NCBI GenBank assembly: GCA_951406725.2
Contig: OX597820.1
Span: 23,994,001-24,058,000 of the forward strand
DNA: 64,000 nucleotides
Source of the DNA: Octopus vulgaris
Taxonomy: Eukaryota
Direction: 5' to 3'
Below, in pieces: positions 9,101 through 49,224 of the stretch; the first letter of the stretch is position 1, and each line of letters begins with the position of its first letter. The notes beneath the pieces were generated by a model. That model made no database searches and had not been told where the DNA came from. It worked only from the letters and a program-made list of their open reading frames with translations. The translations under genes were made by a program, and so were the position numbers.

Positions 9101-10145
9101 CGCTTTCATTTATTTGCCACTAGAGCAAAAAATGAGGGGGACAATACAGAGACAGACATAAAGTGTGGGGCTTACATATAATGAAATGATAAAAAAAGAT
9201 GAAGGAAAGAAAGTATACATGGAATACACTGAAAAAGAAGGGACATATGCATTGTATATAAAGGTTTTTTAAAATATGGGGAGAGGATAATAGGGGAGGA
9301 TGTGGCCCTCCTGATAGAGGGAGACCTCAAGAGATAAACGAGGGACCCCACTGTCCAAGATTTCCCTGAAATCTCAGGAGCAAGTGCCCTCTCCAGTTCC
9401 TTCTCTCCGACTTACAGGTCTACACTTAGAGAGGTGCCATCCACTCTTGCCATTTTCGCTACTTTCACCCACCTGTCAATAAGCTCACTCGAGGATAGCA
9501 CTTCCATCTCCACTCTCAATTTCCCTTTCAAGTGAAACTTGAAGAAGTCAATGAGAGCCCTACCAAGGAGGAATGTGTCAGTCCTCATACTTTTCAGTCT
9601 TGTCCATCAAACAACCTCTTTCGCCACAGCCACCAGGCAAGAGAAAACTGCTTTGTCTGCCCGATTGAAAGAGAACGGCAACGCGATCATCACTACAGAC
9701 TAGGCTGACAGACGGATCCGACCCACACGTGACAGCAGCTGTTCGACATAACCCCACTAAGTCAGCAATGCCCGGACACTGAACGAGGGCGTGCAGAATG
9801 GTTTCACCACTCTGCACACACCTCGGACAATCCCGTCTGACAACACATCCGTGCCTGTAGAGTTTATTTCGAACCGGTAGCGTCCTACCCCCGGTAGTAC
9901 TTCCAGGCCAAGGACATCTGGAAATTATCCATGATAGTTCCCAAACGGAATGTCCTCCGGAACAGACTAGCCAGTTCGTTCTCGTCGGCGCCCAGAGTCT
10001 CCCCGAGAATGTCGTCGCACTTCCCCGCCACTAATCCTCTATAAATTTCTAAAGCGGAACAACCGACTGGCAGATGGCTCTAAGCACCTGACGATATTCT
10101 GGGTACCAGGCTCCCAGTCTCGGTCTTTTCTTTACCCAGGACTGC
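9101..10145 (-). mobile_element. L1/Tx1-clade LINE 3' fragment
   Basis: Decayed C-terminus DNFQMSLAWK..LPVRNKLYRHG..CPRCVQSGETILHALVQCP (CCHC region), then a 3'UTR ending GGCAAATAAATGAAA. Confidence 0.75.
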
Positions 10146-11167: not shown

Positions 11168-11341
11168 CGACTTAATCTCTTTGTCTGTTCTTGTTTGTCC
11201 CCTCTGTGTTTAGGCACCTGTGGGCAATAAATAAATAAGAAACGTTAGCACGCCGGGCGAAATGCTTAGCAGTATTTCGTCTGTCTTCATGTTCTGAGTT
11301 CAAATTCCGCCGAGGTCGTCTTTGCTTTTCATCCTTTCGGG
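11168..11341 (+). mobile_element. SINE family A, tail-to-head junction fragment
   Basis: Family A tail followed immediately by head AGAAACGTTAGCACGCCGGGCG. Confidence 0.8.
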
Positions 11342-11613
11342 AGGCCCAAACACATACACAAACACATACACACATATGTATACAGAGACATACAAACGAC
11401 AATGCGCACACACACATATATATATACATGCATGATGTATATATACCCACGCATACATACATACATACATACATACATACATACATACATACATACATAC
11501 ATACATTCATACATTCATACATACATGCATACATACATACATACATACATACATACATACATACATACATACATACATGCATACATGCATACATACATAC
11601 ATACATACATACA

Positions 11614-14387
11614 ATTTTCGAATGGATACTGCGAAGCAGTCGCTGTATTCAGTCAAACCAACAACTTAATAGTAGTTGGGCTCTACAGACCACCCCAAAC
11701 GCCCCTACCATGCTTCAAGGAATGCCTCAACAGCATAAAGTGTTTCATTCAGCAGTGTCAACCTGACAACATTTTAATGATGGGAGATTTCAACCTTCCC
11801 GGGGTTGACTGGTCTACAAACAGTCTGCCGCCAGGTTCTTCTCTCTCAACCCCTGACAGGGAGGCAGTGGAATCGCTTCTTGACTTCATGGATGACTTCT
11901 TCTTGTCCCAACTGGTACTCGAACCAACGAGATGTCACAAAAACGTCTTAGACTTAATTTTCAGCAATCACACTGATACTATCCACAATATTGCAGTGGA
12001 GAAAACCCTACTCTCCGACCATGACATGGTTCTCTGTGATCTGAGATTTCACTGGCCAAAATGCAAAACAAATGTCATCCCTCCTGTTCATCCATTTGAC
12101 ACTATGGATTTCCACAATGCAAACTGGGAAGCGATCAATAATGATCTTGCACAAGTCGATTGGTCCTTCACACACACATACACACCCACTAACATCAAAA
12201 AGTCCTGGCAGTCACTTGTAGACACCATCACGAACATATGTGCAAGACACACCCCATTAAGATCTGCAAACAAATCTAAGTGTCGAATCCCTAGAAATAG
12301 AAAATCTCTCATAAGGAAAATTAAAAGAATCAACAAAAAGATCAACATGCTGAAATACTGTCAACAGCAACACACCAACCTGACTGCCATCTCGTCGCTA
12401 GAGATTAAAAAACATAAACTCCAAAACAACATGATGTCTATCATCAATAGTCAGCGAAGAGCTGAAGAGGCCTGGGCCATTGAGAAGATCAAACTCAATC
12501 CCAAAGTGTTCTTTTCATTTGCAAAAAAACACAGAGTCACTGGTTCTACTGTTGGCCCTCTGATTGATGAAAATGGTATTCTTCAAGACAATGCCAAAAC
12601 CATGGGAGAAATATTGCAGAAACAATATTGCTCTGTTTTCAACAATCCTGATATGACTGATCTGGGCTGTATCAGTGATGTTACTCCCCAATACACTTTA
12701 TCGGACATAACATTTGGCGCTCCTGATGTCTTAGCAGCAATAAAGGAAATGAAGCATAATTCAGCAGTAGGTCCCGATAGGTTCCCTGCTTGTGTCTTGA
12801 AGATGTGTCAAAACCAACTTGCACCCCCTCTAGCCAATCTGTGGCGGAACTCATTGGATGCTGGATATATACCAGAAGACCTTCTATCCCAGTCTGTTGT
12901 CCCAGTTTTCAAAAAAGGAAACAAATCGCTTGCCGTGAATTACCGTCCAATCTCACTCACCTCTCATATCATCAAGGTATTTGAGAGGGTGCTGAGATCG
13001 CGTATGACTCACTTCCTTGAGAGTCATAATATGCTGAACCCCAACCAGCATGGATTCCGTAATGGGAGAGATTGCCTGACGCAGCTACTGCATCATTTTG
13101 ATGACATTTTGAGAGCCTTGGGAGAGGGTTCCAACACTGATGTCATCTACCTTGATTTCAGCAAGGCCTTTGACAGGGTTGATCATAAGATCCTTCTGAG
13201 AAAGCTGTCCAATATTGGTGTCACTGGAAAGCTGCTGCAATGGATCAAGTGCTTCCTCTCTAACAGAACCCAACATGTTGTAGTCGAGGGAGTCAAATCC
13301 AGCCCAGCCAAAGTCAGCAGTGGTGTCCCACAAGGCACTGTGTTGGGCCCACTTCTCTTCATCATCTACATAAATGATATTACTGACACCATCAAACACA
13401 GCAACATCAGAACCTTCGCTGATGATTCCAAGCTCCAGAAGGTCATCAATGGCGTGGATGACCGAATAAACCTTCAGTCAGACCTACTAGCTGTTGTCCA
13501 ATGGGCGGAAAAGAATAACATGTTGCTAAATGAAGACAAATTCGAACTGATCCACTTTGGAAGGGAGGACGCTCTGAAACTCCCATACTCTCTTCCTTCT
13601 GGAGAAATTCTCATGGCATCCAACAACATCAGAGACCTGGGAGTAACAGTGGACAACAACATAAGCTGGGCTACACATATAAGCAGCAAAGTTGACATGG
13701 CCCGCAGAATGTGTTCCTGGATTCTCAGAACCTTCCAGTCGAGAGATTCCCACGCTATTATCCTTCTCTTCTCCACTTTTGCCCGACCCCACCTTGAATA
13801 CTGCTGTCCACTGTGGTCTCCCTACACAAAACAAAATATTATGAGAATTGAAGCTCCCCAAAGGTCAATCACAAAAAAGATAGATGGCATGTCAGACCTT
13901 GACTACTGGGGTAGACTAGAGAAGCTGAAATTGTATTCACTCCAACGACGCCGTGAACGCTACATTATCTGTATGATGTGGAAAATATTCCATCAGCACT
14001 GTCCGAATGATGTTGGCATCACCTTCAAAATGCATCCAAGGCTTGGACCACGTGCCATCCGTCCACAACAAAAATCTAAATCGCATCACATAACGACAAT
14101 ACGGCACAACTATTTCACCTCAATTGGACCCGCTCTCTTCAACATTACACCAGGACACGTCAAAAAAGAAACTGACCACACAAAATTCAAGAAGTCTTTG
14201 GACAAATTCCTTCAAACAGTACCGGACAAACCATCCACACCCGGATATGTCTCCGCAAACAATAACTCTCTGCTCGAATGGGCCTTGGTGCCCAAATCCT
14301 GAACTGAAAGACTTCGCCAGGTGGTGCTATTAAGTTAGACATGGCCTGGGCCAATACTGGCCCAAAACCTTTCTAAGTTATTCTAAG

Positions 14388-21007: not shown

Positions 21008-21272
21008 ATACAGTTCTATATTTGAGAGATGAGGAATTGTGTACATTATTTACATTTGACGGATATTTGTCCTCATTTTGTTTGTTGTAAACACAACGTT
21101 TCGGCTGATGTACTCTCCAGCCTTCATCAGGTGTCCTGAGGGAATTTCGAACCTGGGTTCTCATTTTTAAGGTATTTTCCGATGTTATTATCATTATTAT
21201 TCAGGTCACTGCCAGGAATCGAACTCGGAATCTTGGGGCTAGTAGCACGCGCTCTTAACCACTACGCCATAT
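21008..21272 (-). mobile_element. tRNA-headed element carrying a hammerhead ribozyme
   Basis: A-box TGGCGTAGTGG and B-box GAGTTCGATTC (21203-21271), followed by an HHR at 21091-21134. Confidence 0.75.
21091..21134 (-). ncRNA. Minimal type I hammerhead ribozyme
   Basis: ACAC-CUGAUGA-A-GGCUG-(10 nt)-CAGCC-GAA-ACGU-U-GUGU; all core nucleotides present, palindromic helix III. Confidence 0.8.
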
Positions 21273-22540: not shown

Positions 22541-22699
22541 TGCTTCTTTCAGTTTACGTCTACCAAGTCCACTCACAAGGCTTTGGTCGACTCGAGGCTA
22601 TAGTAGAATACACTTGCCCGAGGTACCACGCAGTGGGACTGAACCCGGAACCATTTGATTGGTAAGCAAGCTATTTACCACACAGCCACTCCTGCGCCT
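22278..22699 (-). mobile_element. SINE family B, full length
   Basis: Reverse complement of the 7003-7395 type, with internal (CA)n. Confidence 0.9.
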
Positions 22700-22708
22700 A
22701 TATATATA

Positions 22709-23189
22709 TATAACATAAGGGGGATCAGCCATCTGAATGTGGCTAGGGTCAGGGCGGGGTGGTGGGGGTGTTACTGATGCATTTAGCCCCAGGCGAACAT
22801 CAACGTCACCAGAAGAGCTGACACCATCTCGGTGTCCTTGCCAGCCTGCAAAGGGAGATCAGCCTCCCCGAAGATACACATACTACATACGGACTGGTTT
22901 CGAGGTTATTGCTTCTTGTCAACGTATGGTAAGCACCGCTCTTCGTTGAGGGACTTCCTCTACAGGCTGGATATATAGATTTTCACAGTAACCACAGTCA
23001 CTGGCGTAGAAAATCCGTTCGAAAACAATAATAAATCTCCGAGCGAGATATAAACAGTAACTGCTCTATAACATAAAGGGGATCAGCCATCTGAATGTGG
23101 CTAGGGTCAGGGCGGGGTGGTGGGGGTGTTACTGATGCATTTAGCCCCAGGCGAACATCAACGTCACCAGAAGAGCTGACACCATCTCG
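22709..23189 (-). mobile_element. Retrozyme/pLTR-like unit: 123-bp direct repeats, 358-bp period, internal HHR
   Basis: 22709-22831 and 23067-23189 differ at one position; HHR motif at 22886-22928. Confidence 0.7.
22886..22928 (-). ncRNA. Minimal hammerhead ribozyme, U3:A8 variant
   Basis: CAUACG-UUGACAA-GAAG-CAAUAA-CCUC-GAA-ACCAGU-C-CGUAUG. Confidence 0.65.
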
Positions 23190-23203
23190 TTAAGTTAAGT
23201 GTA

Positions 23204-23337
<134 letters not shown>

Positions 23338-23360
23338 TATTACACTTAACTTTTTAAAAT

Positions 23361-23408
23361 ATTTTTGATAAGGTTCGTTTTTTCAAGAAGAACCGAAACA
23401 TGTAAAAT
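23361..23408 (+). ncRNA. Minimal hammerhead ribozyme, U3:A8 variant
   Basis: AUUU-UUGAUAA-GGUUC-(13 nt)-GAACC-GAA-ACAUGU-A-AAAU; all three helices pair. Confidence 0.7.
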
Positions 23409-23639
23409 TTCTAAGAAAATTAAAATTTATCTTATATAGTGGCGTTTTCAAACTTCTTTTTTATAAATACCCACTCGTATACGATCTACACTTATTATAA
23501 ATATATATTTATATATATATACTTTCGTGTGTATCTATAAATGCGTGCATCTCTGTATGCTGGTGTATGTTTGTGTATGCTTCGGTGTGTGTATTCATGT
23601 GATTTAGAACATCTGTGTGTATGTGTGTGTTATGTGTGC

Positions 23640-41333: not shown

Positions 41334-43140
41334 TTCTTATTCAGTAGTTTTATTTTTATAGCGTGCTTTCACTTCACTACCGAGCGCAGCTCTGTGTGCC
41401 TTGGGTATGTGCTGTGATTTGTTGTGATGCTCTGATGGTTATTGTATGGAAAGTGTTCTGCGTAGGATGTGTGCAGTGCCTAGTAGTGCAATTTTCTGTA
41501 TGTTATATGTGTTTGTAAGTCCTGGTGTTTTTGTTATGTATTTGTCTGAATATTTTTTTATCATGCCTAATGCACCTACTATGATAGGAATTGTTTCTGT
41601 TTTCAGGTTCCACATTCTAGTTACCTCTATTTCCAGGTCTTTGTATTTTGAGAGTTTCTCCATTTCTTTTAGAGACACGTTGTCATCTGCCGGTATTGAT
41701 ACATCAATTAGAAAGCATTTTTTTCTTCATGATCTCTGACAACTATATCTGGTCTGTTGGCCTTAATTTCTCTATCTGTGTGTATCGGCATATCCCAGAG
41801 TATGGTTGCTTTCTCGTTTTCTGTGACCTTTTCTGGTGTGTGCCTATACCATCTTTTTTCTGTTGTTATTCCATAATGTTGGCATAGCTTCCAATGTATG
41901 TAGGTTCCAACTCTGTCATGTCTGTGAATATATTCCTTCTTAGCCAGGACTGGGCAGCTAGAGATAATATGATTTATTGTTTCTTGTCCATCTCCACATA
42001 TTCTGCAGTTACTTGTAATATTTCTTTTCATTACATGTTTTTGGTAATTTCTGGTGGGGAGGCTTTGGTCTTGTGCTGCAATTAAAAATCCCTCTGTTTC
42101 TGCTTTGAGTCCTGAGCTTCTCAACCATTGCTGGGATTTTTCTTTGTCTATTTCTTTTGCGTTTAGTTTAGTGCAGTATTTACCATGAAGGGGCTTTTCT
42201 TGCCATCGTTTTATCATGGCTCGTTGCTGTTCTATTTTTAGTTTGGATTTCATTTGTTTTATAGCTTTTGTTGTTTCTTCATCATCTTCTTCTTCTTCTT
42301 TGTGTTTATTAGGTGGTATGATTTCTTGTTTGTATTTGTCAGCTTCCTTAAATACTGAGAACAGTTTTTTGTTTTGCTCGTGTTTTGCTGCTATCTGGAT
42401 CAGTTTTCCTTCCTTCTGAAGTAGGTATTTTTGCAGTCCTATGGTGGTTATTTTATAGTAGTTTTCCAGCTGTATAAGGCCTCTACCACCTTCTATACGT
42501 TGTATATATAGTCTTTCTATGTCAGATTTTGGGTGATGCATCCTAGATCCTGTCAGTATTTTTCTTGTTTTCCTATCTATTTTGGACAGTTCATTTCGTG
42601 TCCAGTTAAGGATATTGTAGCTGTAACTTATAACTGGGACAGCTAAAGTGTTGATACCTATTATCTTGTTTTTAGCATTGAGCTCTGTTTTTAGTATTGA
42701 TCTAACTCGTCTATAATATTCTTTTTTTATTTTCTCTTTCATTTATGTGTGTTGTGCCTTATCTAGTTCATGGATTCCTAAGTATTTGTAAGTTTGGCTT
42801 TGGTCTAATTCTTTAATTTCATTGGTTTTATCTAGTGTGATGTTGTTACTCTTAACTAGTTTTCCTCTTTTCATGGTTACTTTGGCGCATTTTTCTAATC
42901 CAAATTTCATATCTATTTCTTTGGTAAATCCATGAACTGTCTTTAATAGTGTTCCCAGCTGTTTGTCATTTGCAGCGTATAGTTTTAGGTCATCCATATA
43001 TAAAAGGTGGCTGATCGTTTTGCCGTAACATTTATATCCGCATCCAGTTCTATTTAGCATATCAGATAGAGGTGACAGTGCCAAGCAGAAAAGGAGTGGA
43101 AAGAGCGTGTCTCCCTGGAATATTCCTCCCTGGAATAATA
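41334..43140 (-). mobile_element. R4/Dong-clade non-LTR retrotransposon (RT C-half + CCHC + RLE), 5'-truncated, inserted in (TAA)n
   Basis: GIFQGD, HLLYMDDLK, YKYLG, CRICGDGQETINHIISSC, RHD, RPDIVV, KYKDLEIE. One stop (42743-42745) and one frameshift (near 41718). TAA/TTA repeats at 41316-41333 and 43144-43205. Confidence 0.95.
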
Positions 43141-43143
43141 TTC

Positions 43144-43211
<68 letters not shown>

Positions 43212-43212
<1 letters not shown>

Positions 43213-43440
43213 GACCGACTAGACTATCAGATGCTGCTGCATATCTCTGGTCACAATGCGCTTAGCATTGCTTTAGCCATCAAATGACGCCACCCCGCTG
43301 GCTAGGCGAGAAAGCCAACACTCTCTCTTGATCGGAAGGCGACTGGAATGGAGGAACGTAACAGGAAGTGTTTTGCTCAAGAACACAACGATTGCTGGTC
43401 TGAGAATCGAACCCAGGAACCAGCGATCGTGAGCGCAACA
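43212..43440 (-). mobile_element. SINE family C, diverged, tail type 1
   Basis: Reverse complement of the 39195-39300 tail plus a B-box. Confidence 0.75.
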
Positions 43441-48988: not shown

Positions 48989-49039
<51 letters not shown>

Positions 49040-49040
<1 letters not shown>

Positions 49041-49224
49041 GGGAAAGTTTAAGAAAATAAACAAAAGACGAAGGCAGGTGGAGTACAAACAAACAAGTGT
49101 ATTAGTATAGCGCTCAGGAATAGAAAAAGTCTTTTACGTTTCGAGCCTACGGTCTTCAACAGAAAGATACACAGAAAAAAAAACCAGGAGAGAAACAAGG
49201 AGAAAAAAATGGAGAGAAAAAAAG

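Follow-up and report, generated by a model that had tools for sequence, protein, structure and literature searches.

A protein-free hammerhead element with Penelope-type insertion ends in the Octopus vulgaris genome

We examined an insertion at positions 22709..23189 of a 64-kb window, the whole stretch of DNA that was analysed (64,000 nucleotides). Judged by its sequence and by alignment to its relatives, this insertion is a decayed, 5′-truncated copy of a hammerhead element that is 360 bp long, dispersed and protein-free. We assign the element with high confidence to the animal non-LTR retrozymes, or non-autonomous Penelope-like elements (PLEs), as a new family. The affinity to retrozymes and PLEs was part of the initial annotation and is supported. 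With more modest confidence, though still on the favourable side, we regard the family as a Penelope-ended retrozyme that is likely written in trans by a Penelope-like reverse transcriptase (RT)/endonuclease, probably on a circular RNA monomer. Taken singly, the locus is no more than an ordinary dead copy; the interest lies in the footprint left by the family as a whole.

The insertion, its ribozyme and its family

Read on the minus strand, the insertion comprises 1.34 units of the 358-bp non-coding element, with a 3′ end fixed at about 22709–22713 and a 5′ end randomly truncated at 23189. The two annotated direct repeats, at 22709–22831 and 23067–23189, are each 123 bp long, lie 358 bp apart and differ only at 22719/23077. 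On the minus strand, the first is the 3′ part of unit 1 and ends at the inferred RT start site 1, and the second is the equivalent part of the next unit, shortened by the 5′ truncation. The unit has no coding capacity: ATG-initiated frames reach at most 32 aa on the ribozyme strand and, on the opposite strand, 70 aa, tandem reading counted. Flanking (TA)n, as originally described, is present at the left junction, where the insertion abuts a (TA)n target (22699..22712) that terminates a short, abundant repeat, which we take to be SINE-like; at the right end, about 18 bp of non-element DNA intervene before (TA)n. The description of repeats around a hammerhead likewise stands in part, in that the ribozyme lies between the repeats but is present once and is not inside them.

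The hammerhead motif was found where it had been placed, between the repeats on the minus strand (22928–22886), and is of type I with a U3:A8 core. As predicted from motif and fold, it consists of a 6-bp helix I, the core U3-U-G-A-C-A8-A9, a 4-bp helix II with a 6-nt loop, GAAA and a short helix III, and the predicted cut falls after the C at 22892, i.e. between 22892 and 22891. The motif at 22886..22928 is damaged. Two rare changes set the insertion copy apart, the one at 22913 disrupting a pair in helix II and the one at 22895 the helix III palindrome; 35 of 48 family ribozyme regions examined lack both changes and have an intact helix II and a palindromic helix III. The motif fits 45 of 48 family units, 35 of them exactly. 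An Rfam scan returned no hammerhead match in the whole 64-kb window or in an intact family copy. A genome search gave 125 occurrences of the exact 31-nt family core and 0 of a control pattern, so a chance origin of the motif is excluded. Single-sequence folding, which is weak evidence, gave z scores of −2.4 for the ribozyme strand of the monomer and −1.2 for the opposite strand, and of −0.58 for the 81-nt ribozyme region of the insertion copy versus −1.87 for that of an intact copy. The insertion carries one ribozyme and not the two intact flanking ribozymes of an "active" copy; two cut sites are spanned by 20 of 149 family arms. With a single damaged ribozyme the copy would be unable to release a monomer, and it is predicted to be a dead end.

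Other features of the window include a second hammerhead-like motif, with a C3:G8 core, at about 21095–21136 (minus strand) within another short repeat, whose end borders TA-rich DNA. A stub of a further hammerhead-bearing, (TA)n-flanked repeat lies at 49009–49176 (minus strand) and is 80% identical to one beside another locus (L030, 2060–2230). An apparently intact LINE with an uninterrupted 1010-aa frame, containing AP-endonuclease and RT domains, occupies 11270–14299 (plus strand), and broken fragments of LINE-type RT/zf-RVT are present at 41708–43261 and 9578–10030 (both minus strand).

Relatives were sought in the octopus's own genome (2.8 Gb in 227 contigs). A search with the unit gave 1746 first-look candidates, and scoring 40 of them yielded 74 matches, mostly at 94–98% identity. 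Together with the exact cores, these dispersed copies rule out a single-copy unit. The anticipated constant period of about 358 bp was nearly so, ranging from 354 to 362 bp across 61 full units with modes at 360 and 358. These 61 units average 97.6% identity to their majority sequence, to which the insertion copy is about 97.5–98% identical, and the longest sense ATG frame in family units is 30–32 aa. The family is dispersed and young. Some copies are rearranged, with internal template switches and deletions (L163, L142 and L109).

Through the tail pattern described below we found a second family, which has a C3:G8 core, is 69% identical across the full unit and is likewise two-armed in layout. 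A relaxed ribozyme pattern gave 1717 matches against 12 for its control, and further families have periods of 353–360 bp and C3:G8, U3:A8 or U3:G8 cores. In all, at least five related non-coding families of 353–360 bp exist, each keeping this ORF-less length. For 11 units from five families, RNAalifold predicted 65 pairs, of which 16 are changed on both sides. When the hammerhead helices are included, a 57-pair fold of the same units shows 93% pairing, and 18 of its pairs are doubly changed; slid controls are 29–42% paired and 0 of 500 shuffles reach its score. Because this alignment also served in part to derive the fold, and the families share ancestry, these values are inflated and the shuffle count is not a probability. 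The unit as a whole retains a long stem that closes on the ribozyme. Across sister families the 3:8 core pair switches between C-G and U-A and helix III stays palindromic; these comparative patterns favour selection for ribozyme function in the source RNAs.

The unit might instead be the pseudo-LTR (pLTR) end of an autonomous PLE. Most genomic PLE hammerheads are truncated PLE ends according to the parts of PMC4209133 covered, U3:A8 cores have been described from PLEs, and the neighbouring sequence at 23337–23501 is such a stub. The sequence upstream of our ribozyme, however, runs back into the tail and 3′ end of that same 360-bp unit, as many as 3.5 times; tblastn with three PLE proteins found, at the loci searched, no ORF continuous with the unit; and the shared ORF-less length is kept in at least five families. 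We consider a pLTR stub very improbable.

Insertion ends and the copied template

We mapped 149 arms in 102 insertions, at loci taken by best match or by an exact ribozyme or tail pattern, after dropping 22 of 171 arms with less than 93% identity. This choice of loci favours long arms and under-samples arms that end at the first cut site, and among the arms counted are 4 tail-only matches that belong to a sister family, as well as at least two likely pairs of segmental duplicates (L004/L005 and L168/L169). Arms start at site 1, the start of the insertion copy, in 83 cases, at the end of a tail in 63 and elsewhere in 3. The tail-end start lies 37–45 nt, or about 43 nt, further along the RNA than site 1, and 5′ ends are spread evenly round the unit. 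Circularly permuted ends, which the initial annotation had suggested looking for in other copies, are contradicted by these data, as two fixed 3′ points account for the starts of 146 of 149 arms and variation is confined to the 5′ end. With 3′ ends fixed and 5′ ends random, the 123-bp repeat length is an accident of where the cDNA stopped. Fixed TG..CA LTR ends were not found, as the annotation had implied, and repeat length varies between copies. We also rejected an LTR-retrozyme identity on the basis of the type I motif outside the repeats, the duplications of about 12 bp and the variable repeat length.

The stretch between start sites 1 and 2, a tail of about 43 nt, is internal in the insertion copy (23024..23066, minus strand), contains a small hairpin at 23035–23049 and is common to the sister families. 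About 16 nt upstream of start site 1 is a conserved hairpin (22727..22744, minus strand, with a second copy at 23085–23102), helix 11 of the shared fold, which is a candidate binding signal for the reverse transcriptase. A degenerate pattern for the 3′ hairpin gave 18,185 matches, partly inside an unrelated repeat, against 7 for its control. This figure overstates retrozyme numbers because 8 of 30 hairpin-pattern loci belong to an abundant element of about 300 bp, with 5′ TC and a 3′ hairpin followed by CTAG, ends that we presume to be Helitron-like. That element carries about 65 bp of the 3′ end of a sister retrozyme (L258, L265, L270, L278 and L280–L283).

Forty-seven insertions are two-armed and head-to-head, and 44 of these pair one site-1 arm with one tail arm. 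Raw counts place 32 of these 47 insertions in (TA)n, whereas the duplications of the others are AT-rich. Outside microsatellites, target duplications are 8–14 bp in 13 of 15 two-armed insertions, with a median of 12, lengths being good to about 2 bp. Corresponding features have been described for PLEs, in the portions of the literature covered: partial tandems, an inverted 5′ copy, a 30–40-bp tail at one end and a bias for (TA)n (PMC8557442); 8–10-bp target duplications (PMC3846280); and a tail that in vitro extends from one internal RT start site to another (PMC11167929).

Two insertions depart from the usual arrangement. One two-armed insertion (L151) has arms that disagree at 7 of 35 subfamily sites and is without a clear target duplication; it may stem from two templates or two events. 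Another (L288; G000:C1:11168386-11169253) contains seven near-identical 119-bp repeats, each made of the retrozyme 3′ end, the tail and (TA)12, which resembles repeated re-priming or local DNA duplication.

Copying beyond one unit length, as proposed in the initial annotation, is evident from insertions of up to 3.5 units, and variants within them bear on the template. Over 38 subfamily alleles, mismatch amounts to 65 of 1312 sites (5.0%) between tandem units of one arm and 75 of 1561 (4.8%) between opposite arms, versus 26.4% between different insertions; much of the residual mismatch is CpG or homopolymer noise. Where an insertion has a common non-CpG allele, all of its units that cover the site carry it in 190 of 219 cases; for insertion-private alleles the figure is 5 of 141. 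No difference between unit 1 and unit 2 is shared by more than 4 arms; two differences reach that number, and both are CpG changes. The predicted cut site is passed by 110 of 145 arms, with 2 ending there against 2.8 expected, and positions 181–186 show 1 indel over 132 cut-site crossings. Read-through of this kind means that a cut linear monomer is not the usual template. Alleles that differ between insertions and are uniform within them require a bottleneck of one unit followed by re-multimerisation. The one-variant-per-insertion pattern thus points to a monomer bottleneck, and a circular monomer template would fit both the uniform variants and the clean read-through simply. Copying from circle to genome has been proposed for retrozymes (PMC7229834, in the text covered).

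A linear template is a less probable but serious alternative. The same element and Penelope-type enzyme could copy an uncut multimer from a young, homogeneous array, or a monomer with precise template jumps, and no circle would be copied; the ribozyme would merely trim the 5′ end or act late. The anole PLE in vitro used, and indeed preferred, unprocessed RNA and did not need its ribozyme, its protein (PAc) ignored ribozyme mutations, and no RNA-seq reads ended at the cut site, according to the sections of PMC11167929 covered; read-through therefore does not require a circle. Arrays of 2–3.5 units exist, some arms span two cut sites, and the DNA footprints of the ends are explained equally well. 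Against a linear template stand the bottleneck and re-multimerisation demanded by the 38 alleles, the lack of recurrent differences between units 1 and 2, the clean cut-site junctions and the conserved long stem closing on the ribozyme. In vitro, 1 of 9 Xenopus retrozyme dimers was cleaved and 8 were not (bioRxiv 10.64898/2026.07.22.740005, in the part covered).

For the circular template that we prefer, the following sequence of events can be proposed. A source with at least two ribozymes would be transcribed on the ribozyme strand; dimeric hammerheads would excise a monomer, and a host ligase would close it into a circle. A PLE protein would bind the hairpin/tail region and make a staggered cut of about 12 bp, cDNA would be primed from each DNA end, each at one of the two RNA sites, and each cDNA would travel around the template, across the religated cut site, and end where it stalled, after which the ends would be joined. 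At 22709..23189 only the site-1 arm would have been made, and the other DNA end probably folded back within (TA)n, giving a 16-bp inversion. That the insertions record a pair of Penelope enzymes which copied a single RNA circle, starting at both ends of a 12-bp staggered cut and with a separate fixed priming site for each end, is a proposal we hold tentatively, at somewhat less than even confidence. If true, a single rolling-circle step would account for tandem pLTRs, inverted arms and the one-sided tail, and the family would offer a compact 360-nt template for rebuilding in vitro the long-proposed step from circle to genome.

Search for an autonomous partner and the neighbouring PLE-A stub

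Among 6136 candidate GIY-YIG loci in the genome, we scored 150. One family, PLE-A, has repeated intact frames of 781 aa encoding RT and GIY-YIG; it targets (TA)n, carries a minimal U3:A8 hammerhead and has the same layout of two sites and two arms. Its 3′ end showed no significant similarity to the 3′ ends of four retrozyme families, 151–477 of 500 shuffles scoring as well. No 3′-end homology to the unit was found among the best 30 of the 6136 loci, and tblastn with the three PLE proteins at retrozyme loci found unrelated neighbours only. Nine PLE loci and the tail, ribozyme and 3′ hairpin patterns yielded no autonomous element with the unit's ends, and an 18-nt match in one locus (L034, E 0.95) was dismissed as lying within a low-complexity repeat. 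An RT plus GIY-YIG ORF between pLTRs was found neither in nor continuous with the unit at the loci searched, about 290 in all. With no significant 3′-end similarity between PLE-A and the retrozymes and no unit continuous with a PLE ORF at those loci, we infer by class only that the mobiliser is probably a Penelope-like enzyme.

PLE-A has a feature of its own. Canonical PLEs are described as having a single ORF; in PLE-A, which measures 4787 bp from hammerhead to hammerhead at one locus (L065), an extra upstream stop-free frame precedes the 781-aa frame (L065 and L066). This frame is 359–378 aa long and matches no Pfam family above cut-off.

A 5′-truncated PLE-A stub (23337..23501, plus strand) lies head-to-head with the retrozyme copy, with its own minimal U3:A8 hammerhead at 23359–23410 and a tail at about 23468–23501. 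Between the two, 16 bp at the 5′ junction (23192–23207) are inverted relative to 23337–23352, with about 63 TA units separating them (23192..23352); folding back of a free DNA end within (TA)n explains this inversion. Since the pair obeys the site-1/tail rule, as 44 of 47 normal two-armed insertions do, the stub is possibly the second arm of a single event, a chimera with a site-1 arm from retrozyme RNA and a tail arm from PLE-A RNA, and PLE-A would then be the mobiliser. Both parts are also about equally young, each 96–98% identical to its nearest relatives, and an age comparison does not separate one event from two. The arrangement is, however, the sole case among 48 unpaired arms and did not recur in 40 candidates scored for the junction; (TA)n is targeted by both families, and PLE-A stubs often abut it at their 5′ end; sequential insertion explains the 63-unit TA tract and fold-back between the parts; and arms normally share one template variant. 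We favour two separate insertions and regard the chimera as improbable.

Comparison with known systems

Among the papers searched, those on retrozymes in cephalopods, on hammerheads or Penelope in octopus and on twin priming by PLEs contained no description of these families. For the proposed movement of animal retrozymes by Penelope enzymes via circular RNA, support in the literature covered is limited to pLTR homology and co-occurrence. In the octopus genome, about 100 insertions bear the full Penelope signature at their ends, and the proposal becomes testable with a defined short RNA.

Animal non-LTR retrozymes, as described for coral, mussel (350–390 bp) and axolotl (330/350 bp) in the sections of Cervera and de la Pena 2020 (PMC7229834) covered, resemble the octopus family in their non-coding tandem unit of similar size, the octopus unit falling within the span of about 150–450 bp expected of the class, in having one type I hammerhead per unit with a 6-bp helix I, a 4-bp helix II and a short palindromic helix III, and in a self-paired monomer and duplications of more than 4 bp; they are described as being without LTR, PBS or PPT. 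The octopus family differs in its U3:A8 core (C3:G8 or U3:G8 in sisters) and in its mostly dispersed insertions of 0.1–3.5 units with fixed two-site 3′ ends and head-to-head arms, a layout outside the descriptions covered in that source.

With endonuclease-positive PLEs the family shares partial tandems, 5′ truncation, an inverted 5′ copy, a one-sided tail, AT-rich or (TA)n targets, 8–14-bp duplications and a hammerhead upstream of the 3′ end. According to the parts of PMC4209133 covered, U3:A8 cores and palindromic helix III are known in hammerheads of PLEs and of other animal elements, where they imply that cleavage is dimeric, and Schistosoma PLEs have the U3:A8 variant seen here. In contrast to these PLEs, as far as they are described in the sources covered, the octopus unit has no ORF, its hammerhead has a canonical short helix II in place of the long one of their minimal type, and no sequence link to a coding family was found in the loci searched.

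The same proposal, a ribozyme repeat moved by PLE machinery, has been made for Xenopus non-LTR retrozymes (Li, Clavereau, Pollet 2026, bioRxiv 10.64898/2026.07.22.740005). In the portion of that preprint covered, the case rests on co-occurrence and pLTR homology (24 of 57 families), whereas ours, with no homologous pLTR found, rests on the anatomy of insertion ends. Plant LTR retrozymes are likewise composed of a non-coding unit with direct repeats and a hammerhead (PMC7229834 and bioRxiv 10.64898/2026.07.22.740005, as covered). Their type III ribozyme, however, lies inside true LTRs and their duplications are 4 bp, while the octopus family has a type I ribozyme outside repeats of variable length.
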